A stretch of 64,000 nucleotides of DNA from the NCBI GenBank assembly GCA_029856365.1, contig JAHQWW010000003.1, positions 32,001-96,000 on the forward strand, given 5' to 3'. Each line of letters opens with the position of its first letter. Within the stretch, counting starts at the first letter, position 1. The notes beneath the pieces are model-generated. The model did no database searches. It was not told the DNA's origin and saw only the letters and a list, made by a program, of their open reading frames with translations. Source of the DNA: Candidatus Hodarchaeota archaeon (GTDB lineage: Archaea; Asgardarchaeota; Heimdallarchaeia; Hodarchaeales; Hodarchaeaceae). Made by a program: the position numbers and the translations under genes. Of the stretch, positions 3,393-58,033 are shown piece by piece.

Positions 3393-4136
3393 ATGGTTCG
3401 TTTAAAAGCTGTTTACCTGATTAAAGAGGAAGGATTTGTAATATATCACCAATCATTTGGTGTAACAGAGCAGGATCAGGATATGGTAGCGTCTTTACTT
3501 ATGGCTTTGAGGAGTTTTGGAAAAGAAGCTTTAGGAGAGGGAGGATCTTTGTCCAAGGTAGACTTTGGAGAAGGGGCAGACATGATTTTAGAAGCGGGTA
3601 ACCGAATAGTTGCAATCGCGGTAGTAGTTCTCGATAAGGAACATAAAGAACGAGAGGAGTATGACATTCGTAAAGACTTATTGAAATTCGTTAGAAAAAT
3701 TGAGGAAAAATACTCAGAAGAGCTGAATGACCCCATTTTTCAAAAGAGTGCTTTTTCTGGAGTTGCAACCCAAATATATCAACATTTTTTCCGTGATAAA
3801 ATGTCTAGGATTCATCAAAACCAATTTGCAAGTATTAATGAGTACTTGAAATATCCCACAACCCTATTATTTGAAATCACTCCTCGGGGAGGTAAGCTCT
3901 ATCAATTTTATAGAGAATTTCCAAAATTCACTGAATTAATCGGAGATATCCAGAAAGAAGAATTTGATAAATTAATTGACAGTATGCAAGACAAGAATAG
4001 CATGGTTTCATTTAAAGATTGCCTTGATCTCTTTGGTGAACAGAAGATGGATCAGATTCTTGAAATATTCAAATTTTTGACAAATCGTGGAATGTTTGAA
4101 GCATATAATTTTGAACGAATAGCAATTGAGTCATAA
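3393..4136 (+). CDS. longin-like domain protein with C-terminal winged-helix-like region
   Basis: 'VYLIKEEGFVIYHQSF...DMVASLLMALRSFGKE...LSKVDFG' is the Asgard longin pattern; ends 'ILEIFKFLTNRGMF'. Confidence 0.7.
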   Translation: MVRLKAVYLIKEEGFVIYHQSFGVTEQDQDMVASLLMALRSFGKEALGEGGSLSKVDFGEGADMILEAGNRIVAIAVVVLDKEHKEREEYDIRKDLLKFVRKIEEKYSEELNDPIFQKSAFSGVATQIYQHFFRDKMSRIHQNQFASINEYLKYPTTLLFEITPRGGKLYQFYREFPKFTELIGDIQKEEFDKLIDSMQDKNSMVSFKDCLDLFGEQKMDQILEIFKFLTNRGMFEAYNFERIAIES

Positions 4137-4160
4137 TTAGTATTCATTCTAGAAATGAAC

Positions 4161-5015
4161 CTAGCATGTAACATCTTTCCCGCAATGAGGACATTTAATA
4201 GTTTTTTCCCTCTGGGTTCGTACAATAAATGCAGTCATCTTTCTCATTTCTTTTTGCATTGTATTGAGTTCAGTTATAATTCTCGTTTCAATACTGGTGT
4301 TAATTTGCTGATTCATCACCTCAGGAAGAGTAGAAATATTTTTAGTCAACTGTTCGGCTGCTAGTACTAATCTTTGAAGAGTTCCATCCTGTTTAGCCAA
4401 ACGTTCTGTCACAGATGTCTTTAATTCGTTGACGGATGACTCTAAGTAAATAGAGATACGATCACGCAGTGATGTCAATTCTACTTGGATTATTGCATTC
4501 ACTCGATCTCTAAGTTCAGCAACAGTGGTTAATTGATCAGTCTGATTCTCAATTAGGGCATTTAGATTACTTACAACGTTATCAAGTTTGTCTGAAATCA
4601 CTACGAAATTATTAATACTAGCTTCGAATCGGCCCTTGGTTTCTTCAGTAGATGAGTCTACCATTGTGGTGATATCATTGGATAACCTCCGCATACTCCC
4701 AACAACATCTTCCACGTAGCTAACTTTAATAAATTTCAGATCGTTCTTTGTTTCTTCAGCAGTTGTCACGAATGTCTTTTGAAAAGACCCAATGGATTCC
4801 TCAAGGTTAGAAATTACTGTAGGAAGGTTTTGGATTGAAACCTGTAAATCAGAACTGATTTTTGAAGTGTCAACTATTTGCTGGATCGTAATAAGCTTTT
4901 CATCAATACCATTTGTAAGTTGGAGGAGGTATTGTAATTCTGAGGGATCTTTAATGGTCTGTTTTAATTCCAATATCAGTTGCAATATCTCTTTAATGTC
5001 ATCTTCTAAGCCCAT
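4161..5015 (-). CDS. long coiled-coil protein with C-terminal zinc knuckle (CPHCG)
   Basis: Heptad-rich 284 aa; ends 'IKCPHCGKDVTC'; SD-like GAGG upstream. Confidence 0.7.
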   Translation of the reverse strand: MGLEDDIKEILQLILELKQTIKDPSELQYLLQLTNGIDEKLITIQQIVDTSKISSDLQVSIQNLPTVISNLEESIGSFQKTFVTTAEETKNDLKFIKVSYVEDVVGSMRRLSNDITTMVDSSTEETKGRFEASINNFVVISDKLDNVVSNLNALIENQTDQLTTVAELRDRVNAIIQVELTSLRDRISIYLESSVNELKTSVTERLAKQDGTLQRLVLAAEQLTKNISTLPEVMNQQINTSIETRIITELNTMQKEMRKMTAFIVRTQREKTIKCPHCGKDVTC

Positions 5016-5183
5016 ACTATTTCCTCACATCTTTTCACTATTGTTGAGTAATAAACTCAAAGATTCTAAAAGATTTTCGAAGCTTCAAGACTCCAGCAGT
5101 TAAAATTCTAATCTTTTATTAGGGTTAATTAAAGATGCCTAGTAAATGTCTTTGAATCTTATTACAATGTTCAGGGAAACAGG

Positions 5184-6269
5184 TTATTTCAAGCGTCTTA
5201 AAAACGTCACAAACTTGTCATTTTCTAACATTGTGTTATTTAATCGATTGATCATAATAATCGTTTCAGAGTAAATGAATTGCTTGAAATCATTCTCTGT
5301 GGCATTTTGTAAGTCTAGATAAATCTCTTTCACAACAGAAAATGAAATATTAGGTATTCTAGATTCTAGATCTCCTGTTCCGAGATTATAATTCTTTAAA
5401 ATACTGGAGGAGACACGAAGAGAGTCTTGCAGCTTTCGATTATCACCAGAGTACTCTGAAATACTCAGATAATAATTCTTTACAATATCTTGGACTTGTT
5501 CTTGTTCCAAAGATGTAAGACTTAATTCATCTTCACTAGGAAACAATCGACGGAGGTTTTGGAGTAAGCGTGCGGCGGGGGCTTCTCGTAAGAGCTTACC
5601 AATAAGATTCTTTAACTCAAAAGATGGAATCTGAATAATTTCACGTGGATTAGGGAGAGAAGATTCTGATTGAAGCTCGTAACGATGTAGCTCTTTACAT
5701 GCAGCAAAATAGTAATTAGGAAAACCCAAGTGAGACAAATTCGAATATGAGGAAAATAATTTGTCAATAGTCTCAACGATTCCCCATTTGTCCAGATATT
5801 CAGTATTTCGTAGAAATAGACCTATTTTTTCCTCTAGAGGCTTTGTTGTTTGAGGCATTCCTGAAGCTTCTGTTGGTGTTGAAATAGTAGAGTGTGCACC
5901 TAGTAATGAAGAAACTTCCAAATCGATTTTTTCTATTTTTTCTAGAATTTCCAAACCTGATTCCGGTTGTAAACGCATTTTAGAAAGAAATTCCTGGACC
6001 ATGGTTAATGTTTCAATTACATCATCATTTAGGCCATCCTCACTCCTTAAAGTTGTAACTAGTGTTGAAAGAAGCTTAATGAGTAAGAGATTCAAACCAA
6101 TGAGGAGATTGATCTTCTCCCCCATGTTACCTCGTGAAGTCCAAAAATTAAATGAGGGATACTTCTGTTTATCTTTATCAGGTGCCAAGTTCGATTGATT
6201 TCTAAGAAGTTCGTTAGAATCAGGTGAGTCTCGTGTAGATTCGAACCTTGGGTGATCATTTTCGTCCAA
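5184..6269 (-). CDS. hypothetical all-helical protein, 14 bp downstream of tubulin-family gene
   Basis: 361-aa ORF with tight spacing. Confidence 0.7.
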   Translation of the reverse strand: MDENDHPRFESTRDSPDSNELLRNQSNLAPDKDKQKYPSFNFWTSRGNMGEKINLLIGLNLLLIKLLSTLVTTLRSEDGLNDDVIETLTMVQEFLSKMRLQPESGLEILEKIEKIDLEVSSLLGAHSTISTPTEASGMPQTTKPLEEKIGLFLRNTEYLDKWGIVETIDKLFSSYSNLSHLGFPNYYFAACKELHRYELQSESSLPNPREIIQIPSFELKNLIGKLLREAPAARLLQNLRRLFPSEDELSLTSLEQEQVQDIVKNYYLSISEYSGDNRKLQDSLRVSSSILKNYNLGTGDLESRIPNISFSVVKEIYLDLQNATENDFKQFIYSETIIMINRLNNTMLENDKFVTFLRRLK

Positions 6270-6283
6270 CTTAATCCAGCACC

Positions 6284-7648
6284 TTATTCTGGTTTGATGT
6301 AGTAACCAAATAACTTCTCCAAATCATTAACCGCTGCATCTAATTCTTTCCTTGTTGTTCCTTTTGATCGTTTAAACCAATGTTGTTTCAATTCCGAGTC
6401 ACCACTATGAAGATTGATGAGTGCTTTGGCCTCCTCAAGAATATCATATAATTCTGGTATTTTTGGCAAACCAAATAATAGAAGGAGCGAGGCTCGTGTG
6501 GTATCATCATCATAGGCACAGTAAGTTGGAGAAATACTTGCACCCTTAGCTAAAAATGGTGTCAATGCCTTTTTCAAAAGTGGATCATACTCCACTCGTG
6601 CAATATTACGGGGACCACTGAGTACAGAGAAAACAGATGAAGCAGCAGGATTTGTTCCCATATTTGTCAAGCTACAGTTAGAAAGAGTGTATTCAACTGC
6701 AGTGGATAGTTGAGAGTCCATTCCTCCAATTTCTGGAAAAACGGATAAATCGTCAAACATTGCTGGTACAACAACGCTATCCAATTTCAATGCAAAGTCA
6801 CCAATATCGGTAGTAGGTAATACTTCCTTTCCGATTTCAGGTACTCCAGGAGACAACATTTCAGCAATCGATTCTAAAGCTAGAGGGTTGATTAGTTCAA
6901 CAAAAGCCTCTTCTATCTGAGCTGGATAAGCTGTTCCGTCTTGGCCGATAACAGTTGGAACACTGGAACTAACCTGCTCACTACTTAAATCAGCTAAATT
7001 CCTTCCGATTTGTCTACTCAATAAATCAACAGATTCCCCACGTTGCCAACTTAAAACCCGTTCAAGCATTGTTCTATTAGAAAGAAGAAGGATAAGATCT
7101 GGCCCCATGTTTCCTTCCTCTAGTTGGAGTCGCAATAATCTTGATAACGCCCAGACGCTATTAATCGCTTCAGAAGACTGGTTAACGAATGGTAAGACCC
7201 CAAAAACATAAATAAAAATTTTACGTTTCTCCTCTTCAGCAAAACGGTTTCTTAACAATCGTATTAAAGCAGGAGTTCCACCACATCCAGTACCTCCTCC
7301 AAAACTGGTAAAAATACAAAAACCACTGATTCCCTCGTAACCAAGCCCTTGTAACTGATTTAGTACAATATCCTGAGAATTCATAACTGCTTCATAACCC
7401 GCAGAAAATTTTCCACCTACTCCAATCTCTGCATCTGAATAAAGAAGTGTTCTCTTCTTGGAAATGGAATACTTCTTTCGTGCTTTTAACAAATCACCAC
7501 GATCAGTATTCATCACTAGATATTCTCTGATGCGCTGAGGTAACTCACCTTTTTTTGATTTGGCTAAATAACTACCTACTAAATTTGACCCACACTCACC
7601 AATACCGATTGCGAAGATTTCTGACTCTGTTCCTCCTTCAATTGACAT
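6284..7648 (-). CDS. tubulin/FtsZ superfamily GTPase (tubulin/CetZ-like)
   Basis: T1 'GIGECGSNL', 'NTD', signature 'GGGTGCG', 'VLPF', 'LLSN', T7-like 'TTDIGDF', C-terminal helices with HWF. Confidence 0.92.
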   Translation of the reverse strand: MSIEGGTESEIFAIGIGECGSNLVGSYLAKSKKGELPQRIREYLVMNTDRGDLLKARKKYSISKKRTLLYSDAEIGVGGKFSAGYEAVMNSQDIVLNQLQGLGYEGISGFCIFTSFGGGTGCGGTPALIRLLRNRFAEEEKRKIFIYVFGVLPFVNQSSEAINSVWALSRLLRLQLEEGNMGPDLILLLSNRTMLERVLSWQRGESVDLLSRQIGRNLADLSSEQVSSSVPTVIGQDGTAYPAQIEEAFVELINPLALESIAEMLSPGVPEIGKEVLPTTDIGDFALKLDSVVVPAMFDDLSVFPEIGGMDSQLSTAVEYTLSNCSLTNMGTNPAASSVFSVLSGPRNIARVEYDPLLKKALTPFLAKGASISPTYCAYDDDTTRASLLLLFGLPKIPELYDILEEAKALINLHSGDSELKQHWFKRSKGTTRKELDAAVNDLEKLFGYYIKPE

Positions 7649-7699: not shown

Positions 7700-10600
7700 C
7701 TATTTTTCCAGTTTAATACCAGATTTGATTTCAATAAGTAATTTCATTACTAGAGATAAGTACGATCGAATAACCTTATTATGAGGATATGTTTCTCTGA
7801 TTTTCTTAGATATTTCTTTATACTGTCGTGAGTTCTCCTCTCTGCTCTCCGTTGGGGTGTACCGAGGACGGAACATACGAATAGCATGATGCCAATGGTT
7901 CAATTGCACTGAAACCTTTTTCCATTCTTTTCTTTGTTCATCTATTAGTGGTATTAACTCCAGAATATATCTAAGATCATGAGAATCTAAGAATTCCTCA
8001 CGAGCTTTTACTAATTTAGATAAAGGAAAAATATTCTCAGACGCTTCCTCTGTATATCTCTTGAATACTTCCTGAATGTTAGAGTAATATTCTAAATTCC
8101 CCAACTCAATCTGTAGAGCAGCATTTCGATCTTTTTCAATTTTCTTCATGATTTCAATGACGGTCCCTCGTACTGAAACTAGTTCAAGTATTGCTTGTGT
8201 TAAGCGGCTAATGTGATTTGTTGTAGCAATTTCTTGAAATTGACTCAGATATGCAAGATCAACTCGTTCGTCTTGCCGTAAGTCAATTTGGTAATGATTA
8301 AATAAATATTCAACCGCATCTTGAATTTCAGTAATATAGCGTTTTCCCATGGATCTAATTTCACGACAAGCTTTTGTATCAGTTTGCAAGCGATCAATTT
8401 CAACAAAAACGTCAGTTATTTCCAGTAATTGGACATCTTCTTGATTTTTAACTATTACTTGGCTAAATGTTTCGATATATCCCCCGACATACTCGATAAT
8501 ATTGATCCCAACTTCTTTCAAATCATTAACATTTTTCAGAACCTTTCGTGATTCCTTTACACCATGTGCTAACAGAACAGCGACGATTTCTGTGTCATAC
8601 AAAAAAATTAGCTGCCGTAATTTGTGTGCTAACCGCTCATGGGACACTTCCTCGGCTTCAAAATCTGCAATTTTTTTCTCAGCACCAAAAACCCGATCAT
8701 CAAGCGGTGTTATTTCATTTATCCGTGGAAGACTGAGTCTTAGCCAATTGTAGAGATTTTGGTGAAGTGTAGCTAAGGAATCTTTCGCCATTTGCAAACT
8801 TTCCAAGCTATAACTTTCAAAAACGTTGACTAATCTGATAATATCCTTGTGAGTTTTAATCTCAGCCATTTTCTCGTTCATAAGTTTCAGGGTTTCTTCA
8901 AAAAAGATTGTATACTGGCTAGGAAGTTTAGAATAGTCCTGTATATGAGAGGATATTTCCCGTTCCATTTGTTCAGCCAATGTGGAAGCTTTTCGTTCAA
9001 CAAAAGCTCTTAATTGCCAAAATTCGGTTAAAGCTTCAGAATAATCAAGGTCATCAATTTCTCTATCAGTAGAATAGATTAAACTGCTTTTTCGAGATTT
9101 TAATAGCCTAAAAAGTCTTCTATCGACTCCCTCGAGATTTGTTATCTGCTTTTTTAATTCAATAAGAATTTCATTTTTATTTTCTTCAATCGTTTCAAGG
9201 AAAGAAATGTATTCTTTAATTACAGCCTCAATATTTCCTGATTCTGAATATTCATCAATTAAATCCACGATTTTACTGCGTTTTTCTCGTAGGTCAAATC
9301 GTGTCTCTATAGGAATTAATGGAAATGGAATCGACTTTAAATTCTCACGGATCCGTGAGGAAATCTTGTACTTCCAAACTGGAATCTTTTCATACTCATC
9401 TAAAAGCTCTTGGGTACTTTTTTGGGCAACAGCACTAGCCTCATCTCGGAATGATTTCAAATCGTCAACTGCAAGAATTGGAACATGAACCTTTAATTTA
9501 GGGGGAATTGTTTCTAGATTTATCAGTTGATTATAAATCGGATGTATTTCATTATCTATTTTATTCCAAAGTTCAGTTTTAATATTTGTATTAAGTCTAT
9601 GAAGTCTTTCGATTTCATGAACTAAGTCACGAATATCTATTTCTTCCACAATTTTATGTTTTCTTTGATATTCGATTTGATCTTTTAGGTCTTCAGATAG
9701 AATATCCCGTAAACTTTCACGTGAATCATAGAGATTCAACAAATTTTGTCTGAGACTTTGTTGAGCTGGTTTAGAAAAATAAGCAACCAGTCGAGTCTCC
9801 CAATCCTTTATTTCTCGAGCCTTACTACTTAATTCACTGGGTGATAAAGCCTCAAAATCGCGAATAATCGGTATTTGAGGCCCCTCACTTAAATTTATAA
9901 CTTCTTGGATGTGAGGATTTTCTAGTAATCTGAAGAAATAGTTTTGACACTCTTCAGCTAGAGCTGACTTCAATTCGTGATATCTTTTTGCGAGTTCTAC
10001 CCATTCCTGAAGGTCTCTTGTTTTCGCTGCCTCTTTTTCAATTGCTCGTATATCCTTAGTGAAATCAGATGGAACTGGTATCTTCATTGCACGAATAGCT
10101 TTAGAAGCGTTTATTAGTTCTGATGTACTGATCAGCTTCTTTGTAACAATAATTTGTTGTTGACGCCAAGAACGGATTTTCTCAATATCTTGGATTATAG
10201 TGGGTATATTTGTAGATGAAACATCTGTTTCTGGAACTGGTGAAAAAGAAGATTCCAGTCCTTCTCTTCCTGTAATCTGTATAATACGTCCGATTTGATC
10301 CTCAGTTTCTGTTTTTAATGAAATTTCATAAGTTCTTAGAGCATTTACGAATTCATTACTCAATGAATTCAATCTCTTTTCCAATGTGATGAGAGTTTCT
10401 ACTGAAGTTGTTTTTTCCGTACTGGCTTGAATATCTTGTATTTCCTCCTTCAGTACATCAATTTTTGCCCAAAGATCCAAACCAATTGAGGCTACTGTAT
10501 CGATATGTTGTTGTAACTCAGAAGACATTTGAATTATTGCCAGTTGGATTTTACCTTCTGTACCTTTTCTGCGCTGCTTTAAATATGCGTTTTCCGCTTC

Positions 10601-11218
10601 CAACTGACTATAGACTTCTAGTAAATCAGGAATAGTCATCACATGAATGCTTGTTTTTGTTGTTTGATTCGTTATTCGAATCTTTTCTTCATCAAAATTA
10701 ACAAATTTTCCATAAAGTTCGATAATCTCTCGATTAAACAATAATATAGATACATTTTTTCCTCTTAGAACCTCTGAAATCTGATTATAGGTTCTAAGCA
10801 CATTTGAACTAAATTTCACAATCTCTTTGATGTTAAAACTGGGAATTTGTAGTTTACGAATGGTTTCTGTCTCTTGGGGGATAAATTTGGCAATTTCTTT
10901 GATGTTATTTGCCAAGTCAAAGTAAATCTTACGATATCCAACTAAAAGGGTATTTAGTAAATCCTCAGATAATTTACCAAATTTCTCTTTATTTTGAGTA
11001 AGGGATCTTTTCATTCCCCTCTTTTTAAAGAATCCTGCTGTAGGCAAGTCTTTTTCCAATTTTTCGATTTCTATCACTAATTTTTGTGCTTCGTTTAAAG
11101 TGGAGACAGCTTGCACTGTTGGGTCAATTGATCGTAATTCAGTCACTAAATCTCGAATCTTATGAAGAACTTCCTTTGAAAGGAGTTCTCCTGCTTCCGA
11201 TGTCATATTGGCTGGCAT
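7700..11218 (-). CDS. 1172-aa helical-repeat / coiled-coil protein
   Basis: Almost entirely amphipathic helices with recurring units; no NTPase motif seen. Confidence 0.8.
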   Translation of the reverse strand: MPANMTSEAGELLSKEVLHKIRDLVTELRSIDPTVQAVSTLNEAQKLVIEIEKLEKDLPTAGFFKKRGMKRSLTQNKEKFGKLSEDLLNTLLVGYRKIYFDLANNIKEIAKFIPQETETIRKLQIPSFNIKEIVKFSSNVLRTYNQISEVLRGKNVSILLFNREIIELYGKFVNFDEEKIRITNQTTKTSIHVMTIPDLLEVYSQLEAENAYLKQRRKGTEGKIQLAIIQMSSELQQHIDTVASIGLDLWAKIDVLKEEIQDIQASTEKTTSVETLITLEKRLNSLSNEFVNALRTYEISLKTETEDQIGRIIQITGREGLESSFSPVPETDVSSTNIPTIIQDIEKIRSWRQQQIIVTKKLISTSELINASKAIRAMKIPVPSDFTKDIRAIEKEAAKTRDLQEWVELAKRYHELKSALAEECQNYFFRLLENPHIQEVINLSEGPQIPIIRDFEALSPSELSSKAREIKDWETRLVAYFSKPAQQSLRQNLLNLYDSRESLRDILSEDLKDQIEYQRKHKIVEEIDIRDLVHEIERLHRLNTNIKTELWNKIDNEIHPIYNQLINLETIPPKLKVHVPILAVDDLKSFRDEASAVAQKSTQELLDEYEKIPVWKYKISSRIRENLKSIPFPLIPIETRFDLREKRSKIVDLIDEYSESGNIEAVIKEYISFLETIEENKNEILIELKKQITNLEGVDRRLFRLLKSRKSSLIYSTDREIDDLDYSEALTEFWQLRAFVERKASTLAEQMEREISSHIQDYSKLPSQYTIFFEETLKLMNEKMAEIKTHKDIIRLVNVFESYSLESLQMAKDSLATLHQNLYNWLRLSLPRINEITPLDDRVFGAEKKIADFEAEEVSHERLAHKLRQLIFLYDTEIVAVLLAHGVKESRKVLKNVNDLKEVGINIIEYVGGYIETFSQVIVKNQEDVQLLEITDVFVEIDRLQTDTKACREIRSMGKRYITEIQDAVEYLFNHYQIDLRQDERVDLAYLSQFQEIATTNHISRLTQAILELVSVRGTVIEIMKKIEKDRNAALQIELGNLEYYSNIQEVFKRYTEEASENIFPLSKLVKAREEFLDSHDLRYILELIPLIDEQRKEWKKVSVQLNHWHHAIRMFRPRYTPTESREENSRQYKEISKKIRETYPHNKVIRSYLSLVMKLLIEIKSGIKLEK

Positions 11219-15073: not shown

Positions 15074-16024
15074 TCACTTGGTATTATCTGCAGATCGAAT
15101 TATTGGTTTATAAATGTCTAAAGGCCACTGTTTCTCCATCAATTTCAGAAGCACACGTGAGTCAAATTGATCAATCTCAATCGAAGCTGATGCTGTTTTC
15201 ATTAATCGTTCAGCTATCAATTTTGATCGTACGACGGAATCGGAGTACCCTATTATGAGTCCAATCACTAAAGGATGATTTTTCACTATAACAAGCTGAA
15301 GATCGGAAGCTGTTATTACTTCCATTCCAGTTGGATTCTTTGATAATTCTTTCACTGTTTCACTAATACCCAAATTTAGCTGATCCAGGATAGGACGTTC
15401 TATATTTATGAATTTCGTAGTATAGATCTGATGTGTTTCGAGATCAATTAAAATTACTACTCGTACTTTACATTTGAATGTGGATTCAACTCCAGCCAAT
15501 ATATCGGCTATCCAGTCAAATGCATCATAAAAATTCTCACCAGTCTTTGCTGATACCCGAAATAAGCCTACAGGTCTATCTGATCTTTGCGCGCGAGGTA
15601 AATCAAGATCCTGTACAATTAGATCAAAAGCTCGAGCCCCCTCTAAGTCAATTTTATTAGCAATGAAGAGAACAGGGGCTTTCTCGTTTCTCTGAATGGA
15701 ATCCCAGAAAGCCTCTGATGCTTCTGTGATACGAATATCAGCACTATCAAGTACAAAAACGATTGCTGACGCTTTTTCTAGAGAATCATGCCATAAAAGG
15801 TTACGGTATATCTCTTGTCCACCTAAATCAACCAAATTGAACTCAATTTGACGATATCTCACGGTTCGATAGTTGACACCGAGGGTTCGTGTTGTAGGTA
15901 CAAATTCTGAACGTAAAAGTCTATTAACGATTGTGGTTTTACCAGCGCCGTCGAGACCAATAATGGTAATCTCATATTTCTCGACCTTTTTTCCTTTGAA
16001 AATTCTTCGCAATATACTCGACAC
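15074..16024 (-). CDS. Arf-like small GTPase fused to C-terminal roadblock/longin-like domain
   Basis: N-terminal amphipathic helix; G1 GLDGAGKTT, G3 DLGGQ, G4 NKID, G5 SAK; about 140-aa alpha/beta extension. Confidence 0.88.
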   Translation of the reverse strand: MSSILRRIFKGKKVEKYEITIIGLDGAGKTTIVNRLLRSEFVPTTRTLGVNYRTVRYRQIEFNLVDLGGQEIYRNLLWHDSLEKASAIVFVLDSADIRITEASEAFWDSIQRNEKAPVLFIANKIDLEGARAFDLIVQDLDLPRAQRSDRPVGLFRVSAKTGENFYDAFDWIADILAGVESTFKCKVRVVILIDLETHQIYTTKFINIERPILDQLNLGISETVKELSKNPTGMEVITASDLQLVIVKNHPLVIGLIIGYSDSVVRSKLIAERLMKTASASIEIDQFDSRVLLKLMEKQWPLDIYKPIIRSADNTK

Positions 16025-19245: not shown

Positions 19246-20631
19246 TTAAAGTGTTTTTTGAACTGGTTTTGAGGAACGAGTCACATTCACATTTTTATAA
19301 TTTCCTTTCTGACCAATTATCAAAGTCCCATATACTCCATCAAACCCATAGGGATGAAAAGTGAAATTACCAGCTTTAACTTGTAGAATTGCTTCAATTA
19401 TCGATGTTTCTATTTGACCATGAAGTTTTGCTTCAACTTCTTCAGAAGTAAGTTGCCATAAAATCCGTTCAGGGCCTATATAACTTGTAATTCGCCGATA
19501 TTGATTAATTAAAGACTTAGCTGTCTTAGTTCTTATATTTAAGACATGACTTAAGATATCTATTAATGGTACCATACGAATGAATTTTTTTGGTGGTTTT
19601 TCTTCCCCAAGTACTCTTTTTCCTTTTTGAGTGTTACTAATCTCAACACATCTCTGGAAGACCCCGATTGTTAACGGTTTTTTACAAATTGGGCAAATAT
19701 CATCTAATGGTACGTGTTGAGGAGAAAAATAACAATAATCATTATCACCGTGTAAACCAGGGCGTTTCCTTCCTGCACGATGACCAGTTAAAAAAAACCT
19801 TCCTTCTTCTGGAGGAAATTCAACTGTATATAACACTTGATTATTACGTAGAGCTAATACTATACTTTGATAATCAAATTTCGATACAGAAAGAACAGTG
19901 AATTCACGGCCCATCCTATGTAAGGCACTTGAGTGAGCATCTGAATTTGATATTAATGTTCTATCATCTAATTCAGGAATTAATGCTAAGAATTCGGGAT
20001 CAGCGGATAACCCAGTCTCAAAAACGTGTAATCTTGAAGTTGCTGAAGCGAAAAAATCTGATAAATAGTTAATACGAATATTGCCTTTCCCAGATCCGAA
20101 AACTCCTTGGGGTGTCATAATATGAGCTGGAATAGCCTCGATCCATGGATCTAAATCTAAAATGGCGTGAATTCGTTCTGCAACTTGATCTGAAGATTGA
20201 CATGTAATAAAAGGTCTTGCCATTTTATGGTGTTTAACCCCCCATTGGTCCAATAAAACTCTAAATGTTTCTATTAAGGGAAAATTTGGAAATAGAAAGA
20301 TTACATGTGTTTCTTTAGAATATTCTCCTATCTTTGCCGTGAAAATCATTTCCGTCTGCAAAATAAACCGAGTTTGATTATTATTTTGGAGAAAAAATAC
20401 TCCTTTCATATCTTCAATAAGAGCTTCCTTGAGAATATCAGTCCACATTGTGAATTGACAATCTCCTGTCCCAATCAAGTCAACGCCTTTTAATGGCATT
20501 GTCTGATTCGTTTTTGCTAAATGTAAAATTCCTTTTTTCCGATTTATAAGCTTAGTTTCTGGTTTAATTCCAAGGCTTTGAGTTCCACCAGCAAAAATAG
20601 AATGAGCGTGTAAATCTACCGCTACTTCCAA
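19246..20631 (-). CDS. endoQ: endonuclease Q family (PHP domain + Zn finger)
   Basis: 'DLHAHS', 'GTGD', 'PAHIMTP', 'ETGLSAD', 'NSDAHS...GREF', CPIC, 'GFDGVYG'. Confidence 0.88.
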   Translation of the reverse strand: MEVAVDLHAHSIFAGGTQSLGIKPETKLINRKKGILHLAKTNQTMPLKGVDLIGTGDCQFTMWTDILKEALIEDMKGVFFLQNNNQTRFILQTEMIFTAKIGEYSKETHVIFLFPNFPLIETFRVLLDQWGVKHHKMARPFITCQSSDQVAERIHAILDLDPWIEAIPAHIMTPQGVFGSGKGNIRINYLSDFFASATSRLHVFETGLSADPEFLALIPELDDRTLISNSDAHSSALHRMGREFTVLSVSKFDYQSIVLALRNNQVLYTVEFPPEEGRFFLTGHRAGRKRPGLHGDNDYCYFSPQHVPLDDICPICKKPLTIGVFQRCVEISNTQKGKRVLGEEKPPKKFIRMVPLIDILSHVLNIRTKTAKSLINQYRRITSYIGPERILWQLTSEEVEAKLHGQIETSIIEAILQVKAGNFTFHPYGFDGVYGTLIIGQKGNYKNVNVTRSSKPVQKTL

Positions 20632-20646
20632 TAATCGTTCTCCTCA

Positions 20647-21978
20647 TTAAATATTAAGTTTATTAGGCATATTACTATTATCATTATTGTTTGAGTCAGG
20701 TTTTACTTGATATTCTAACACCTGCTCACTGACTAGTTTCAATAGTCCTACTCCTTTAGTAGAATCACCGACCATGAAGAGAGAAGTATCTTTCGTGTTA
20801 TTTGTTGCCCACCTTAATGCAATGGCGTTCGATCCATGTTGGGACAATACCATTTGAACCAAATCAGTACGAAACAATCGTGAGCTAATATTGTTAATTG
20901 CTATGAAAATCTGGCATATAAACGCATGTTTTCTTGCTACACGAATAGTGCTAGCGCGGAGTGTGTCAACTTTGTCCATACTACACCGTAAAAGGGAAAC
21001 ATCTGTAATAATTGGTTTAAAGCTTTTGAGTAATTCGAAACTCTTATCTAAAAACTGATTTTGAGGATATAGTTTGATTTCATCATTAATTGACATTGAA
21101 TATCTCGAAATATAAGGTTGTGAAATATTCGAGCCTTGTATATTCAAATGCCATAAAATTTCCCGAAAGGTTCTGAATAAACTCCCAAGGCGCCCTTTGC
21201 CTGAACTAAATGCAATGATAAAATTATTCCTAATATATATTAAATAGAATTGTTGATTACTGTAAGTTTTCCCATGTATTTCGATGGGAAGCGCATCAAA
21301 GAAGGTTCCAAATGTCTTTAACTCACGCTCATAATCTTGTAGGAGTGTAGGAATTGTATTCACTAAAGAAATTATATCTGGAGACAGAATGATGTTATGA
21401 AGAGCTCGAATGGTTCCATCTGAAACCAAAACCGTCTCCGTATCTGTACAAATTTCACTAATTCGATTTTGAAGGGTATGATCAATTTTAGTTAAAAGAA
21501 CTTTCCTAATGTTACTGAACACCTTGTTTAATGAATAGGCTTCTTGCTTACTGTTGTTTTGAAATTTTATTTCTCGGATGGCTTCTTGAAGAATATTTGA
21601 GAAAGCAAGAGAATGTTGCAATAATTTGTCCTGATGAATGCGTGGGATAAATAGCATGAAACTTTCAATTCGATTTTTTCCTCTAGCTTTAGGATCCTCA
21701 ATTGTGAAAGAGTGGATCAATACACGGCCGCGGATACCTGTAACATTGATTGGTATTATTGCAGTCTCAGACTCTCCTGTTGGTTCACCCACACCAATTG
21801 CCATCGTAAATAACGTTGTTGTGATACCTTGAAGAATAATTGTCGGGATTTCTAACTCATGGGTCAAATGAGATTTTAATACAGGACCATGTTCTTCATC
21901 AAAGACTATATGGGCCAAAAAAAATTGAATAGGAATATCTTCTGACGTTTCGGAAGTTCCCATGATATTAGGTCTCAC
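20647..21978 (-). CDS. uDENN/longin (folliculin/SMCR8-like) domain protein with degenerate roadblock-like C-terminal domains
   Basis: 'HIVFDEEHGP' and 'HSFTIEDPKARGKNR' motifs. Confidence 0.72.
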   Translation of the reverse strand: MRPNIMGTSETSEDIPIQFFLAHIVFDEEHGPVLKSHLTHELEIPTIILQGITTTLFTMAIGVGEPTGESETAIIPINVTGIRGRVLIHSFTIEDPKARGKNRIESFMLFIPRIHQDKLLQHSLAFSNILQEAIREIKFQNNSKQEAYSLNKVFSNIRKVLLTKIDHTLQNRISEICTDTETVLVSDGTIRALHNIILSPDIISLVNTIPTLLQDYERELKTFGTFFDALPIEIHGKTYSNQQFYLIYIRNNFIIAFSSGKGRLGSLFRTFREILWHLNIQGSNISQPYISRYSMSINDEIKLYPQNQFLDKSFELLKSFKPIITDVSLLRCSMDKVDTLRASTIRVARKHAFICQIFIAINNISSRLFRTDLVQMVLSQHGSNAIALRWATNNTKDTSLFMVGDSTKGVGLLKLVSEQVLEYQVKPDSNNNDNSNMPNKLNI

Positions 21979-22168
21979 CTTTTACTTGTTGAAACCAAAT
22001 TGAAAAGGATTCTCAGTCTTTGTGTGAAATCAATCTCTATCTAGAATCTACCTATATCCTCAATTAAGTGTTTTTCATTACTTATACGAAAATATTTCTT
22101 TCTTGGATCAAGAGAAAATAACATCTTTAAATGTGATAAAACATTATTGACATAAGAAAGTAATAAAT

Positions 22169-22465
22169 CTAAGATTCAGACTCTTTCTTCTTTATCAAAT
22201 CGATTATATCCTCCCATTCTTGCTCTTGCTTTTGTTTTTTTGGAGGATTTAAACGATTTTCTACTCCTAGAATATCTAACGCCCATTGGCGCTCTTTTTC
22301 ACGTTTTTGCAACTTCTTTTTTTTTCGATGTTCAGCTGCATTGATCCAAGTCTCTAATGCTGCTTCCTGTATTCCACATTTAGTACAAACATACAATCTT
22401 TCCTCAGGATTCCAAAAAAGGGTTCCATTCTTGCAATTAGGGCAAGGAATTCTTGAATCGCGCAC
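22169..22465 (-). CDS. small zinc-ribbon protein with basic helix
   Basis: CPNC...CTKCG. Confidence 0.75.
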   Translation of the reverse strand: MRDSRIPCPNCKNGTLFWNPEERLYVCTKCGIQEAALETWINAAEHRKKKKLQKREKERQWALDILGVENRLNPPKKQKQEQEWEDIIDLIKKKESES

Positions 22466-22486
22466 AGGAGGCTTAGACAGAGCTGT

Positions 22487-22981
22487 TCACTTCTCCATTG
22501 ACAGAATGTTATCTAGTTCTTTCTGAGTAATAGATAAGGATGAAATTTGTGATTGAGGACGCTTTGAAGGAGGCCATTGTTGTATTATCTGCATTATTGA
22601 ATCAATAGCTGGGCCAATTATCAACTTCAAGAGCTCAAGATCCACATAAGGATCTGTCAAGACTCCTAAGAAAGCGATACGCCCAATTGCTCGTAAAAAT
22701 AATTTAAAATTATTTCTTTCTGCAGTGAAAGAAACCCAGGGGGAACTCCCAATTTCGTGTCTAATGGTATCCATGTTCGATTGAATTCCAGCCACTAAAG
22801 AACAGAGAATAAGACTGCTTTCTTTACCTAGCGTACCTTCTAAATTCGCCTCTTCAATTAGAAGTCCATCTGTATCTACACAGAAACCTGAATAAATACC
22901 ATCTAGAGAGTTCACGATGTCAGTTAATACTTGTCGAAGTCCAGTTTTCGATTGTCTTGAATTATCATTGGAAAAGGTCAA
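22487..22981 (-). CDS. roadblock/LC7 (MglB/LAMTOR-like) protein
   Basis: 'LDGIYSGFCVDTDGLLIE', 'FLGVLTDPYVDLELL'. Confidence 0.85.
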   Translation of the reverse strand: MTFSNDNSRQSKTGLRQVLTDIVNSLDGIYSGFCVDTDGLLIEEANLEGTLGKESSLILCSLVAGIQSNMDTIRHEIGSSPWVSFTAERNNFKLFLRAIGRIAFLGVLTDPYVDLELLKLIIGPAIDSIMQIIQQWPPSKRPQSQISSLSITQKELDNILSMEK

Positions 22982-32202: not shown

Positions 32203-32550
32203 TTAATCCTTGGACGTTAGTGTCATTTTACTGCTCTCCCGTTTCACTAACGCCACAATAATAATTTCTGAGTCATAATCAGGGATTATCTCAACATCAC
32301 CTACTTCCAATTCTAACCGTACGCTTCGAGCTTCTTCTTGTGAGATTTCCCTAGAAATACTTCTCACCTTCCCCACCAAAGAGGCAACGTGAGCAGCCAC
32401 TCTCTCTGTATCCTCTTCAGGAAGAGAAGATTGGAGTGGTAAACCATCTGTATCACTTAATACGGCACCATATACTCCCTTATGCTTTCCGACTGATTCA
32501 ATGACCTTCTCCAACGCCTGTTGTGATAAATACCCTGCTTCTTGTGCCAT
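32203..32550 (-). CDS. roadblock/LC7 protein, tandem paralog
   Basis: 'HKGVYGAVLSDTDGLPLQSSL...AHVASLVGKVRS...EIIPD'. Confidence 0.92.
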   Translation of the reverse strand: MAQEAGYLSQQALEKVIESVGKHKGVYGAVLSDTDGLPLQSSLPEEDTERVAAHVASLVGKVRSISREISQEEARSVRLELEVGDVEIIPDYDSEIIIVALVKRESSKMTLTSKD

Positions 32551-43800: not shown

Positions 43801-45051
43801 TCAATTTTTGCTAGGAACATCTGTTATTGATGCTTTTTTATTCTTCTTTTTCCGTAAAGCCTCGGTGTTATCCCGAAGCTCAGATATCATGACCCCTGAT
43901 TCTTTATATAATTTATCAGCTTGTTCCAGATCAAAGTAAAGATCATTTTCAATCCATTTATACTTACGGTACTTGTAAAGTGAGATACTGCCAATTCTAG
44001 ATTCAATGGCAGGGATATCCCTTTGTATGAGAGTCTCAAGTTCTTCAACTGACAAATTTGCAAGTTTACTGAAGTTTTCCGACACAAAGATTTTGCATCT
44101 CTCCAGCTCAGTCTTAATTTTTACCAATTCAGCTTGATATTCCGTAATAATGGGATCTTTTATCTCCTTATAAATTTTTAAGACCATATCACTGTCGACA
44201 TTAAACAAATACTCATCATAGTATTGGATAGCAATTAAGCTATCACCTTGTGCTACTTTCTCAATTTCCGAAACGATGACTTCAGCTGGTAATTGTTGTA
44301 AGGCCCAAATTGCCTTTCCTTGAACATTCACATCCCTATCCTTAGCTACCTGTAATAGAGGGAGGACTGAATCAGTATGCCTGATTTTACCTAAAGCTTC
44401 TGCAGCATTTCCACGAGTTCCTTTATCTTTGTCCTTTAAAGCGTTAATCAAAACAGAAAGAGCCCTAGCATCTTTTAACTCACCGAGACTCCAACTCATT
44501 TCTCGACGAGCATATTCTTCAGGTTCCTTCTCCAGCGCTTTTATCAGGGGTTCAATAGCATTTAGAACCCTAATTTGCCCTATGGCGTGGGCAGCATTTT
44601 CTCGTACTTCAGAGCTTTCAGTATCATTAAGTACTTTAATAAGACTCAGTCCTGCTTCAATAGCTATATCTCCCATTTCTCCTAATTGTTTGGCAACCAT
44701 AGCACGAAAATCTGGATCCTCATCGGATTCTAAATACTTAACAAGGGGGTTAACAGTTGATTTATTTGCGATCTCGCCAAGTGCTTCAACTGCACCAAAT
44801 CTTACTGTCCAATAGTCAATTGATGGATCTAAAGCAGCAAGTATTTTTGGTATAGCCATTTGGGGATTATTTTTACCTAAGATAACTAGTTGATTGACTG
44901 CTGATGCACGAATAAGTAACTGATGACTCTCTAACGCTCGTAGCATAACATCGCACAAAGCATCAGGAGGTAGTTCTTGGTCATCAGGTATTTGCATGAT
45001 TTTTCGAAGGGCAGGATCTATATCTTCCTCTTTATTTGGGATCACAGTCAT
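43801..45051 (-). CDS. HEAT/PBS-lyase repeat protein
   Basis: Repeated 'VR..AA.ALG.I' units. Confidence 0.92.
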   Translation of the reverse strand: MTVIPNKEEDIDPALRKIMQIPDDQELPPDALCDVMLRALESHQLLIRASAVNQLVILGKNNPQMAIPKILAALDPSIDYWTVRFGAVEALGEIANKSTVNPLVKYLESDEDPDFRAMVAKQLGEMGDIAIEAGLSLIKVLNDTESSEVRENAAHAIGQIRVLNAIEPLIKALEKEPEEYARREMSWSLGELKDARALSVLINALKDKDKGTRGNAAEALGKIRHTDSVLPLLQVAKDRDVNVQGKAIWALQQLPAEVIVSEIEKVAQGDSLIAIQYYDEYLFNVDSDMVLKIYKEIKDPIITEYQAELVKIKTELERCKIFVSENFSKLANLSVEELETLIQRDIPAIESRIGSISLYKYRKYKWIENDLYFDLEQADKLYKESGVMISELRDNTEALRKKKNKKASITDVPSKN

Positions 45052-47549: not shown

Positions 47550-48239
47550 TTGAGTACTGATGTAGAATCATTATCTGTACTTATTGCCTCCATTGTAGAT
47601 CTTGGAGCTAAAATCTGTGTTTTATCAGACATTTCAGGGTTACCTATTGTTACTCGTTCGAAAATAAACATAGAAGATGTAGAAATTGCACTTAGTGCTC
47701 TCAGTAGTCTCGTTATTTCAACAGGAGATACTATTGCCCGAGAATTAGAAGGGAATTTTTCAAATATGTCCGTTCGAACGAGTGGTGGTCTGCTTCTTTC
47801 TACTGTCATCGATTCAAATCCCAAAGTGGTTCTTACAGCTATTGTTGATGAGAATCTTGAAACTACAGTCATCCATGAAATGCGTCGTCTTCAACCAATT
47901 ATCTCCAATGCCATTGAGGGAGTAGCCATTGAGATAAAAGAACGTGAAAGATTACAGGCCCCAGATCAACGAAAAATTCTCACATTTTTTGATTCATTTT
48001 CTCTTAAAGTAAACCAAGCAGACTCTCCAAATAATTTGGTTAGTATTATTCAAGCAGCTAAAGATGATCTGTTTACATTAGTCAATTCAGGAACAATATC
48101 TTATGAAATGAATCGATTTGCTCTTAAGCTGGAAAAATACATCCAATACGAATCTCTCAACCCAGAAACTCTATCGAAAATCAAAGAAGAAATCAAAAAA
48201 GCTGTAGAAGATTGGAAAAGACGACTCTTACCAGAATAG
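47550..48239 (+). CDS. roadblock-like domain + helical bundle
   Basis: 'VLSDISGLPIV...ALSALSSLV', then an all-helical C-terminus. Confidence 0.78.
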   Translation: MSTDVESLSVLIASIVDLGAKICVLSDISGLPIVTRSKINIEDVEIALSALSSLVISTGDTIARELEGNFSNMSVRTSGGLLLSTVIDSNPKVVLTAIVDENLETTVIHEMRRLQPIISNAIEGVAIEIKERERLQAPDQRKILTFFDSFSLKVNQADSPNNLVSIIQAAKDDLFTLVNSGTISYEMNRFALKLEKYIQYESLNPETLSKIKEEIKKAVEDWKRRLLPE

Positions 48240-55647: not shown

Positions 55648-55939
55648 TGGTTAAACTTCATAAAAATGAGTTAGATTATATTTATAAAATTAATTTGTAT
55701 TTTAAGTTACCATGTTTCTTTTTAGTAAACTATTTGAGGCAGATAGGTTGAATGAATAAATCTGTTATTACGAACTGAAAGATTCATCTTTTATATATTT
55801 TATATATTACTCATTCCTTTTTGATTAAGTTTATTATTGAGTGTAGAGAATTATGGTTAATGAACTATAATAAAACTTATTGTCAATAAATACACTACTT
55901 GGAGAATTTTAGCATCAACCATTCGGGTTTGGAAAAAAT

Positions 55940-56581
55940 TTGAATCAAAATATTCGGATTTTCAAAAAACGCCTCCAAATTTCTCAAAAAAAGTGGAATA
56001 CGGTTCAGGGCCATTCATTAAGAACAGTTAATACCATCTTAACCATCCTTTCGAGATTAAATTTGACTCAACGTCCTGATGCTTTTTCAAAGGCACTTTT
56101 AACTAGATTTACTGACATTCCAGAACGGTTAGCTTATCATCTTGCAGAATTGATAAATAAAAGTATTATAGATTTATATTCTTATATTGAGCAATTCTCC
56201 GATATTGTTCGTGAAATGAGAAAAATAGAGAAAGTTTTTCGGCAAGATTTTTCTCTTATGGCTAGAAAACAAGTGATAGGAGGAAATGATGCATGGCCAC
56301 ATGATCTCGAGATCATAGAACAAGCTGAAAGAACTTTCCAAGAAATAATCGATATGTATGAGACTGAGCTTACACTTAGAAAGCAATTAATAAAAGAAAT
56401 ACAAGAATCAATTTCTTTACAGCCCTTAATGATCACTGTTTACTTGGTTCTCTGGACATCAGAAGTTTATATCGAACCTACTAGGATTCATGAACTCATT
56501 GAAGAATTTACACATGTAGAGAAAGTTTGTGAGCGCGTGTTCCAACAAGATTCTTATAATTCCGTTCCAAAATCTCGATGA
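55940..56581 (+). CDS. CINP/C1orf109-like helical protein
   Basis: 'KKWNTVQ', 'FTDIPERL', 'AWP', 'IIDMYETELTLRKQL', 'YLVLWTSEVYIE'. Confidence 0.7.
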   Translation: MNQNIRIFKKRLQISQKKWNTVQGHSLRTVNTILTILSRLNLTQRPDAFSKALLTRFTDIPERLAYHLAELINKSIIDLYSYIEQFSDIVREMRKIEKVFRQDFSLMARKQVIGGNDAWPHDLEIIEQAERTFQEIIDMYETELTLRKQLIKEIQESISLQPLMITVYLVLWTSEVYIEPTRIHELIEEFTHVEKVCERVFQQDSYNSVPKSR

Positions 56582-56599
56582 TCTATTTTTTGAACACAT

Positions 56600-58033
56600 T
56601 TAGCTTGCATGGAATTTAGTTAATTTTAGAATGTTATCTATTGATCCATTATGAAACCCTTTCACTAGCAAGCCCTGAATTTTATCGTTAACAGCGTATT
56701 CGGGTTCACCATTCTCTAAAAATTTCTTTACTAAATTCATTGACACAGTTAAACTATCTCGAGCATTCTTTTCCAAACCTGCAGGACAAATTGCAACACC
56801 TCGTAATTGAGAATTTTGTGGCCCTACTTGCGATATAAAGACACATCGTTTATCTCCTGCAGTTAAGTGGTCAGGCGTATGCCCAATTAAGTCTGAACTC
56901 ATAGATTGAATAGCAGAAAACAAACCTGTGTACAAACAAACTTCTTGTCCAGCTGGACGATGACTCGCGAATAAAGGAAGACCACCATCATCGAAAATAT
57001 ATATCTCTGAATCTGAGAATATCTTATTCAACACGTTAAAACGTTCATCCTCGTCGGAGGGCTCCGATGGTACTGATTCTATAGAATTTCTTTTGATTGA
57101 AGTTTCACATGAAGCAAGTGCTGGAACCACAGAAGTTAAAAAATCATTTGAAGCAGTATTGGGCATAATATTTCCTATTGTGTTAGAGTCTGTCAGAAAA
57201 AGAACAACATTATAACCTGAAATGCTAGAATCAACCACATTAGAAAAAACTATCTCAAATTCTTTTCCAAATGTGTTTGCTATTTGTTTGGATGTGTTGT
57301 TCATGGTTTTAAGATTAAGAGATTTAATTGAAGTCACAGATAAAAATATCATCTCCAGACTTTCGAGTTTTTCAGGAAGCGTTGTAACTAGATTCTCACC
57401 AACTTGGTCAATAGCGCCGTTTATTGCGTCTTCTAAGATCATTGAAGATGAAATTCCATAATACATACATTTAGAGTCGCCAAAAATACGAATTAAATTG
57501 GGAAATGAAATTCCAAATCCAGATGACGGTGTAAGACTTGATATCAAACTATTTAATAGAACTAAAAAATTCTGTCGACCTTTATCGAGAGTACAATCAA
57601 AATGAAAATAACATTCTCCAAAAAAATCCCTTTGATTCGAGTGAAAACCTTTTCCTGTATCAATAAATATAGGAACAATACCAGAAAAATCGATAGAAGC
57701 CATGATTGCTCCTAAGACTCTGAAAATTCCTTCTTCGGAAGAATTGAATATGAATATCAAGAAAAAAGAATTTAAAAGGCTGCATATTTGCGGTATCATC
57801 GTTTCAGAGTCAAGAACAACTACTTGATCACATATATTAGGCGTGAAGGATGTTCCAGTGGTTATAAGTAGCAGAGGTAAGCGAGACTCACTTTTTGTGG
57901 CTAAGTAATCTTTCAATACTTCTAATTCAGTTACCAAATCCTTGCCAACATATACGATTTTCCCACGAGGTCGGAAATATTCCAATATTGAATTTCTATC
58001 AGATCGTGAGCTCAAAGCTGATATCTCTTGCAT
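56600..58033 (-). CDS. inactive FtsZ-like domain fused to C-terminal longin-like domain
   Basis: FtsZ C-terminal-domain pattern at about residues 165-285; no GGGTG(S/T)G; C-terminal 'IYIFDDGGLPLF...LYTGLFSAIQSMS'. Confidence 0.68.
   Translation of the reverse strand: MQEISALSSRSDRNSILEYFRPRGKIVYVGKDLVTELEVLKDYLATKSESRLPLLLITTGTSFTPNICDQVVVLDSETMIPQICSLLNSFFLIFIFNSSEEGIFRVLGAIMASIDFSGIVPIFIDTGKGFHSNQRDFFGECYFHFDCTLDKGRQNFLVLLNSLISSLTPSSGFGISFPNLIRIFGDSKCMYYGISSSMILEDAINGAIDQVGENLVTTLPEKLESLEMIFLSVTSIKSLNLKTMNNTSKQIANTFGKEFEIVFSNVVDSSISGYNVVLFLTDSNTIGNIMPNTASNDFLTSVVPALASCETSIKRNSIESVPSEPSDEDERFNVLNKIFSDSEIYIFDDGGLPLFASHRPAGQEVCLYTGLFSAIQSMSSDLIGHTPDHLTAGDKRCVFISQVGPQNSQLRGVAICPAGLEKNARDSLTVSMNLVKKFLENGEPEYAVNDKIQGLLVKGFHNGSIDNILKLTKFHAS

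Follow-up and report, generated by a model that had tools for sequence, protein, structure and literature searches.

Gene Content and Order of the Window

A 64,000-nucleotide stretch of the genome of a Candidatus Hodarchaeota archaeon (contig JAHQWW010000003.1, positions 32,001 to 96,000; G000:C9:32001-96000), referred to below as the window, was analyzed for genes with longin or roadblock domains. Two of these encode fusion proteins and are the main subject of this work: an FtsZ-like protein with a longin-like C-terminal domain (FtsZ-L) and a MinD/ParA-like protein with an internal longin domain (MinD-L). The source assembly comprises 4.24 Mb in 204 contigs and is 83.6% complete; the G+C content of the window is 33-39%. 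An original prediction, made from the sequence of the window, had listed nine longin/roadblock genes, at window positions 3393, 15074, 20647, 22487, 31869, 32203, 34020, 47550, and 56600, and had joined them into one system. All nine open reading frames (ORFs) were found at these positions. In eight of them at least one test identified a longin or roadblock domain; for the ninth, 15074, the C-terminal domain in question matched nothing.

The nine genes were spread over both strands with their own intergenic regions. Between them lay genes for Cdc48, an IF-2B-family protein, aminotransferases, an amidohydrolase, a GTP cyclohydrolase, a peptidase, and other proteins. The order of all nine was the same in seven other genomes of the genus. 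However, all 51 window genes that were compared, housekeeping genes included, were likewise collinear in the seven genomes, where FtsZ-L was down to ~47% identity. Because collinearity extends over the whole window, the conserved linkage of the nine genes carries no specific signal. No operon-like layout was found over positions 3393-58033, that is, neither tight co-directional spacing nor linkage beyond the general synteny of the 51 genes in the seven genomes.

FtsZ-L Joins an Eroded FtsZ Fold to a Longin-like Domain

The gene for FtsZ-L (window 56600-58033, minus strand) is solitary, with neighbors on the plus strand. It encodes a pseudo-FtsZ of 477 residues with a longin-like C-terminal domain (CTD), and full-length orthologs were present in all 21 genomes of the genus. 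The structure was predicted from an alignment of 21 orthologs (A1). The FtsZ-like body, residues 20-285 (57179-57976), was modeled confidently, with a predicted local distance difference test (pLDDT) value of 70-96, as a Rossmann-like domain, a long central helix, and a β-α-β-α-β-β subdomain. It is followed by a disordered linker, residues 286-325 (57059-57178; pLDDT <50, no invariant column), and by the CTD, residues 326-477 (56603-57058), of which residues 326-470 were modeled as an α-β-β-α-β-β-β-α-α domain. The 50 best Foldseek matches of the model were all FtsZ (top E value 2.6e-13, template modeling (TM) score up to 0.71). With VIA-align, the FtsZ structure 2vaw gave a Z score of 20.0 (root mean square deviation 3.1, 250 residues), CetZ proteins reached 16, and tubulins reached 15. 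A profile search of the PDB sequences returned FtsZ only (best E 0.002). The Pfam models Tubulin (PF00091) and FtsZ_C (PF12327) did not match FtsZ-L, and FtsZ_C was matched in 2 of the 21 orthologs with a best E value of 0.0076.

The signature loops of FtsZ are eroded in this body. Except for G30, the T1 glycine loop has been deleted. After strand 4, where FtsZ and intact relatives of FtsZ-L show the T4 sequence GGGTGTG, alignment A6 placed NSSEEG, and G30 and G102 are all that is left of the T1 and T4 glycine signatures. In FtsZ the T7 loop, NxDxxD, activates GTP hydrolysis in the next subunit. The acidic residues of T7 are gone from FtsZ-L, which has GISFPN against NLDFAD in the genome's own FtsZ (hhalign) and against NLDYSD in the intact relatives (A6); the two mappings agree. 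Because T1, T4, and T7 are lost, FtsZ-L most likely neither binds nor hydrolyzes GTP. The fold and the lost loops together bear out the original description of the FtsZ part as catalytically eroded.

Across the genus the CTD was better conserved than the body, with 78% versus 57-59% identity and 45% versus 12-17% invariant columns. Its core, residues 340-400, reached 94% identity, with 70% of the columns invariant. The ratio of nonsynonymous to synonymous substitutions (dN/dS) was 0.18 for the body, 0.86 for the linker, and 0.07 for the CTD, values that are rough because dS is near saturation. The difference between body and linker argues that the FtsZ-like body is under purifying selection and is no relic.

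The CTD was matched by hhalign to FAM_L, a longin family of the source genome described below, at 92% (E 7e-7, 56 columns). In VIA it gave Z scores of 8.7, close to the stated noise level of the program, to a chain of the CPLANE complex (116 residues), which we take to be the longin subunit of that complex, and to a subunit of the Lam complex, the fission yeast Ragulator (106 of 117 residues), presumably a roadblock protein. The Pfam model Fuz_longin_1 was matched at E 0.0019 in P0074, a relative of FtsZ-L, and a PDB profile search with the CTD (alignment A4) gave matches at chance level only. By hhalign and VIA, the CTD is predicted to have a longin-like fold. FtsZ-L would probably act through this near-invariant domain, as an adaptor or as a non-hydrolyzing subunit.

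Directly adjoining FtsZ-L on the opposite strand is a gene for a C1orf109-like (CA109-like) protein (55940-56581, plus strand; E 8e-11). The C1orf109 family is a eukaryotic ribosome biogenesis family.

A Hodarchaeales FtsZ Family with Intact and Eroded Members

When the A1 profile was compared with 1.84 billion representative proteins, only 15 matches were obtained. One of them, P0081, is a genuine FtsZ (Tubulin E 4e-40, FtsZ_C E 1.5e-19) with intact GGGTGTG and NLDYSD motifs and the same CTD as FtsZ-L. Of five close relatives, three have 571-577 residues and two are partial; three of these five carry an annotation as FtsZ from Hodarchaeales or Hodarchaeota. The intact relatives P0081, P0090, P0091, and P0093 passed both the Tubulin and the FtsZ_C models. 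An hhalign comparison of A1 with P0091 (98.4%, E 7e-15) was collinear over the end of the FtsZ C-terminal subdomain, the linker, and the CTD, which indicates that eroded and intact proteins share the whole architecture. Further eroded members, P0083, P0086, P0087, P0074, and an ORF of genome G079, show intermediate stages of motif loss. The homolog from genome G078 (L023) gave no alignment between its N-terminal part and the FtsZ-like body (E 0.27), and the contig is truncated at that point. Strong CTD matches among 399 Asgard genomes were confined to the Hodarchaeales, where every one of the 21 genomes of one family and both genomes of the other had them. None of 24 genomes of the order contained an intact fusion, and the canonical FtsZ of these genomes (in the source genome G000:C36:75402-76394) lacks the CTD. 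Three contigs offered a readable context for the intact fusion; each showed, in this order, TFIIB (on the opposite strand), an Arf-family GTPase, FtsZ-CTD, and EamA. The Arf-family gene, which precedes P0091 at L170:6620-7186, thus lay directly upstream of the FtsZ-CTD gene in 3 of 3 contigs.

FtsZ normally ends in a short C-terminal anchor peptide after a disordered linker, and this peptide binds membrane tethers such as FtsA, ZipA, and SepF. In the FtsZ-CTD family, a longin-like domain would occupy the site of the peptide after a flexible linker, and FtsZ-L would be the eroded end of this family of FtsZ paralogs, whose intact members keep all GTPase motifs. FtsZ-L thus resembles canonical FtsZ in its two-subdomain fold (Z 20), its disordered linker, and its C-terminal interaction module. 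It differs in the loss of T1, T4, and T7, in failing the Pfam models, and in the folded domain of about 150 residues that replaces the short peptide. What is new here is a Hodarchaeales family of FtsZ paralogs that have a longin-like domain at the site of the usual C-terminal anchor and include both intact and eroded members, the intact ones beside an Arf-family gene. No description of FtsZ-longin or MinD-longin fusions was found in the literature searched, which was itself an incomplete selection.

MinD-L and Its Neighborhood

The second fusion, MinD-L (window 34020-35723, minus strand), has 567 residues. Pfam, the structural model, and VIA divide it into a domain whose P-loop is of a degenerate MinD/ParA type, then a longin and a helical region, and finally a winged helix. 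The N-terminal domain, residues 1-255 (34959-35723), contains the P-loop SRTPGCGKKT. It matched Pfam CbiA at 17.4 bits against a cut-off of 25.4 (E 0.004), and the model was matched in 7 of 20 orthologs (best E 5.4e-6). A PDB profile search found a CapA/CapB tyrosine kinase chimera, a protein of MinD/ParA type, over the P-loop region only (residues 6-43, E 0.0046). AlphaFold2 modeled residues 1-260 poorly (pLDDT 30-55), and the MinD/ParA-like fold is therefore regarded as supported by sequence only.

The deviant Walker A motif of MinD and ParA is KGGxGK[ST] with a signature lysine. When the P-loop of MinD-L was aligned to MinD by eye, G-K was kept, the signature lysine position held Thr, and the residue after G-K was Lys or Gln in every ortholog. 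No ortholog thus retains the signature lysine or a Ser/Thr behind G-K. The positions expected for the second switch I Asp and the Walker B Asp were non-acidic in the same kind of alignment.

The longin domain, a FAM_L member at residues 266-400 (34524-34928; model residues 269-404), was recognized clearly by its match to solved longins, which have a β-β-α-β-β-β-α fold. VIA gave Z scores of 13.3 for Sec22, 13.2 for the CPLANE chain, 12.8 for VAMP7, 12.3 for AP sigma, 11.3 for the N-terminal domains of AP mu, 11.1 for the signal recognition particle (SRP) receptor chain 6frk_y, which we assume to be the SRX longin, and 8-9 for roadblock proteins. Foldseek matched AP sigma with a TM score of 0.70. 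Residues 401-567 (34023-34523; pLDDT 74-92) comprise the helical region and a probable C-terminal winged helix, for which the VIA match to TFE-alpha over residues 501-566 was weak (Z 7.7). The original description of an eroded MinD-longin fusion thus holds for the longin and for the degenerate P-loop motif, and the MinD identity is putative, based on the CbiA matches.

No C-terminal amphipathic membrane-targeting helix of the MinD type was found in the model of MinD-L, which has the longin, the helical region, and the winged helix instead. A role in marking membrane zones, as had been proposed for it, is therefore unlikely, and MinD-L would more likely be a DNA- or protein-bound scaffold. The rough dN/dS values were 0.11 for the MinD-like part and 0.09 and 0.08 for the remaining parts. 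Full-length frames were present in 19 of the 21 genomes of the genus, and homologs were confined to the Hodarchaeales.

A gene missing from the original list, for a Ras/Rab-like small GTPase (33226-33774, minus strand; Pfam Ras E 4e-48), lies 245 bp downstream of MinD-L. Read by eye, as were all intergenic sequences, the gap shows a T-run after the MinD-L stop codon and an A/T-rich TATA-like stretch before the GTPase gene. Farther along the minus strand are a tandem pair of roadblock genes (31869-32550; 105 and 115 residues, 16 bp apart) and a gene for a Yip1-domain membrane protein with a zinc ribbon (30674-31588; Pfam Yip1 E 6e-16). A MarR gene on the other strand separates the GTPase gene from the roadblock pair and Yip1. 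The roadblock proteins matched Pfam Robl_LC7 at E 2e-17 and 63.1 bits (31869) and at E 1e-15 and 57.4 bits (32203; cut-off 23). With 82-99% identity in the genus, above Cdc48, they are among the most conserved proteins of the window, which points to a heterodimer under strong constraint. All 13 genomes of the genus that were examined have MinD-L, the Rab-like GTPase, the roadblock pair, and Yip1 together within 5 kb. In another lineage, P0070, a 45% identical relative of MinD-L, is followed by a helicase gene and not by a GTPase gene.

A complex prediction of the MinD-L longin (residues 262-402) with the CTD of FtsZ-L (residues 326-477) gave a score of 0.13 against a mark of 0.32 and speaks neither for nor against an interaction. 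Two other MinD candidates were rejected. A split MinD and longin pair at C124 owed its CbiA match to an AAA_26/DRTGG protein beside an acyl-CoA ligase/ATP-grasp gene and is probably metabolic, and the CbiA match at C122 is CTP synthase.

Other Longin and Roadblock Genes of the Window

Four genes form a string on the minus strand (19246-22981), with gaps of 21, 190, and 15 bp: a roadblock-like gene (22487), a zinc ribbon gene (22169), an FLCN/SMCR8-type longin gene (20647), and a gene for a 461-residue protein of unknown family (19246). The roadblock-like protein 22487 scored under the Pfam cut-off for Robl (E 0.008, 16.3 bits) and was matched by hhalign to the roadblock family of the genome at 87.7% (E 3e-6). 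Protein 20647 matched Pfam Folliculin (PF11704) at 29.9 bits against a cut-off of 23.3 and has an HGP motif and the arginine of KARGKNR. A GP motif and an arginine have been described for Asgard FLCN/SMCR8-type longins (PMC12290439). By model and motifs, 20647 is such a longin with a putative role as a GTPase-activating protein (GAP), and the FLCN-type arginine finger originally ascribed to one gene of the window was recovered here. The 461-residue protein (19246-20631, minus strand) is encoded 15 bp downstream of the FLCN-like gene, had no Pfam match, and was 60-83% identical in the genus. By location it could be an FNIP-like partner, yet no similarity was found. In hhalign, neither this protein nor the C-terminal half of the FLCN-like protein reached a longin or roadblock family at 20% or more.

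Gene 15074 (15074-16024, minus strand) encodes an Arf-family GTPase (Pfam Arf PF00025, E 6e-34, 117 bits) followed by a 140-residue C-terminal domain of unverified fold. The best PDB matches of the Arf part, 8oun, 8oum, and 8oul, were deposited as "GTP-binding protein" or "Arf GTPase." The C-terminal 140 residues are highly conserved, and on visual inspection their succession of strands and helices is compatible with a longin or roadblock domain. However, hhalign gave no match to longin or roadblock families at 20% or more, and a PDB profile search (alignment A3) gave chance-level matches only. Of the proposed Arf-longin/roadblock fusion, the Arf half is thus secure and the other half found no match. 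For Asgard archaea, fusions of Arf- and Rag-like GTPases to longin or roadblock domains have been reported (PMC10933270, PMC11914678).

The two remaining genes lie on the plus strand. Gene 3393 (3393-4136) encodes a FAM_L longin at residues 1-138, identified by iterative hidden Markov model search and by hhalign (99.5%), and a C-terminal part of 107 residues. Gene 47550 (47550-48239) encodes a divergent roadblock domain at about residues 5-105, matched by hhalign to the roadblock family at 93.6% (E 2e-7), followed by a C-terminal part; it was 72-92% identical in the genus. Pfam gave no match for 47550 and no meaningful match for 3393 or FtsZ-L.

Longin and Roadblock Families in the Source Genome

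The FAM_L and roadblock families were built by iterative profile searches within the source genome. FAM_L is a single paralogous longin family of 23 genes that includes the N terminus of 3393 and the middle of MinD-L; the roadblock family has 14 members, including 47550, and hhalign related the two families to each other at 84.7%. FAM_L domains are also fused to three major facilitator superfamily (MFS) transporters, a HerA-like ATPase, a histone-fold protein, and proteins of 1,528, 1,721, and 6,872 residues. Because the family is attached to so many unrelated proteins, the longin tag is not aimed at division proteins, contrary to what had been supposed. Longin tagging is a general habit of this genome, extending to transporters and ATPases, and no special feature of its division machinery. 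The 6,872-residue ORF (G000:C5:1442-22057, minus strand) carries its FAM_L longin near the C terminus, at residues 6632-6773.

For counts of density and adjacency, profiles were used that had not been seeded from singleton genes of the window. The window held 5 of the 36 longin/roadblock genes of the genome versus 0.54 expected (Poisson p = 2.5e-4, or about 0.017 when 66 windows are allowed for). GTPase genes were not enriched in it (2 of 58 versus 0.87 expected). Genome-wide, 5 of the 36 longin/roadblock genes had one of the 58 Ras-family genes no more than 300 bp away, versus 0.61 expected (p = 3e-4), and tight pairs of longin/roadblock and GTPase genes were found at C162, C102, C161, and C91. 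This linkage agrees with the known MglA/MglB system and with eukaryotic longin/roadblock platforms.

Comparison with Known Systems

Rag/Gtr and Asgard Rag-like GTPases (LokiRagO, PDB 8yl2) resemble the two fusions in having an NTPase followed by a longin or roadblock domain in one chain, as do the Asgard GTPase-longin/roadblock fusions of Tran et al. 2024 (PMC10933270). Foldseek aligned about 240 columns of MinD-L to Rag chains. In FtsZ-L and MinD-L, however, the NTPase is not Ras-like; it has an FtsZ fold in the one and a MinD/ParA-type P-loop in the other, with degenerate catalytic motifs.

The α subunit of the SRP receptor consists of the SRX longin and an NG domain of the SIMIBI class, and its longin binds the Arf-like β subunit. 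As predicted for MinD-L, it combines a SIMIBI-class NTPase and a longin in one polypeptide. The MinD-L longin matched the SRP receptor chain (Z 11.1) as well as the SRX chain in the SR-β/SRX complex (Z 9.7). Unlike the receptor, MinD-L has the reverse domain order, a degenerate MinD/ParA-type NTPase, and an added winged helix, and the likeness is one of shared folds.

The MglA/MglB, Ragulator, FLCN-FNIP, Mon1-Ccz1, and TRAPP platforms belong to the same domain superfamily, and two of the present results recall them: the adjacency to GTPase genes above chance, and the FLCN-type GP motif and arginine of 20647. In contrast to these platforms, pairing and GAP or guanine nucleotide exchange activity are putative for the window proteins. 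The other FAM_L fusions of the genome, to the HerA-like ATPase and the MFS transporters, share the domain family, whereas the partners in FtsZ-L and MinD-L are pseudo-NTPases of FtsZ and MinD/ParA folds.

Interpretation of the Locus

Taken together, we favor, with moderate confidence, the explanation that the window is a conserved stretch of the Hodarchaeales chromosome with at least six separate longin/roadblock transcription units and no single system, two of the proteins being lineage-specific fusions. Several points weigh against this explanation. Longin/roadblock domains are denser in the window than anywhere else in the fragmented assembly, which might reflect some regional functional grouping. 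The selection estimates suffer from the near-saturation of dS. The MinD-like part of MinD-L was poorly modeled, and given its conserved G-K it may bind nucleotide. Because the three contigs with the intact fusion come from related organisms (CTD 67-77% identical), the Arf/FtsZ-CTD adjacency may be plain synteny, and the best match to that Arf in the source genome (67%; G000:C77:1247-1810, plus strand) has no FtsZ-like neighbor.

Of the known archaea, the Hodarchaeales belong to those most closely related to eukaryotes, in which small GTPases with longin/roadblock platforms decide where membranes and cytoskeleton act. By analogy with the eukaryotic proteins and MglA/MglB, the longin domains described here would pair with other longin or roadblock proteins and dock small GTPases, and a link between cytoskeleton and GTPases is plausible. 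A far more specific proposal, which we hold to be doubtful, is that FtsZ-longin filaments or their non-hydrolyzing derivatives are docked and switched by Arf- or Rab-like GTPases in Hodarchaeales as a prokaryotic forerunner of GTPase-controlled placement of the cytoskeleton, with MinD-L as a parallel case on a ParA/MinD scaffold. The intact FtsZ-longin and the adjoining Arf-family GTPase provide a concrete, expressible pair of proteins for asking whether such wiring predates eukaryotes.

The strongest competing explanation limits function to local modules. MinD-L, the Rab-like GTPase, the roadblock pair, and Yip1 would make up one module for a GTPase cycle like that of MglA/MglB or Ragulator, the roadblock protein, FLCN-like longin, and 461-residue protein would form a candidate GAP complex, and FtsZ-L would have an unlinked partner. 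The constant neighborhood of MinD-L and the GTPase gene in 13 of 13 genomes fits such modules, as do the similar tight pairs on other contigs, the 15-bp spacing behind the FLCN-like gene, and the motif and arginine that its product keeps (PMC12290439). The 245-bp gap with its T-run and TATA-like stretch does not, and neither does the opposite-strand MarR gene that splits the proposed module. The divergent P0070, which lacks an adjoining GTPase gene, likewise counts against them. We consider this explanation possible, if rather unlikely.

The original prediction went further and saw in the nine domains one spatial signaling layer of 55 kb, in which combinatorial pairing would allow the pseudo-FtsZ and the pseudo-MinD to position GTPase switches along filaments or at membrane zones. 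The local density of longin/roadblock genes, their constant order in the genus, the 5-kb cluster around MinD-L, and the genome-wide linkage to GTPase genes could all be read in this way. However, the order of the housekeeping genes is equally conserved, the nine genes are scattered among them on both strands with separate intergenic regions, MinD-L ends in a winged helix and not in a membrane anchor, and the supposed tag sits on many unrelated proteins. Co-occurrence of the two fusions across genomes had been put forward as a test; both are order-level core genes of the Hodarchaeales, so that co-occurrence reflects shared ancestry and cannot separate the hypotheses. A single system of this kind therefore appears improbable. 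That the pseudo-enzyme domains are decaying relics, with function only in the longin parts, would suit the lower conservation of the FtsZ-like body and its vanished glycines and acidic residues, but it is very improbable in view of the intact frames in 21 of 21 (FtsZ-L) and 19 of 21 (MinD-L) genomes, the low dN/dS of both domains (0.18 and 0.11) beside that of the linker, and the complete two-subdomain fold of the confident FtsZ-L model.

Additional Observations

A third gene of the FtsZ/tubulin family lies at window 6284-7648 (minus strand; Pfam Tubulin E 2e-17). Its top PDB matches are the CetZ proteins 3zid and 4b46, and its identity in the genus is 81-95%. It belongs to a same-strand string with 4161-6269 and 7700-11218, which includes coiled-coil, 361-residue, and 1,172-residue proteins of unknown families. 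Two further window genes encode domain types better known from eukaryotes, a RING-H2 finger protein (1253-2254, minus strand) and a HEAT-repeat protein with a weak Adaptin_N match (43801-45051, minus strand). Outside the window, the Arf-family gene C77:1247-1810 lies 2.3 kb from a gene (C77:4094-4906, minus strand) for a protein with two tandem roadblock domains.

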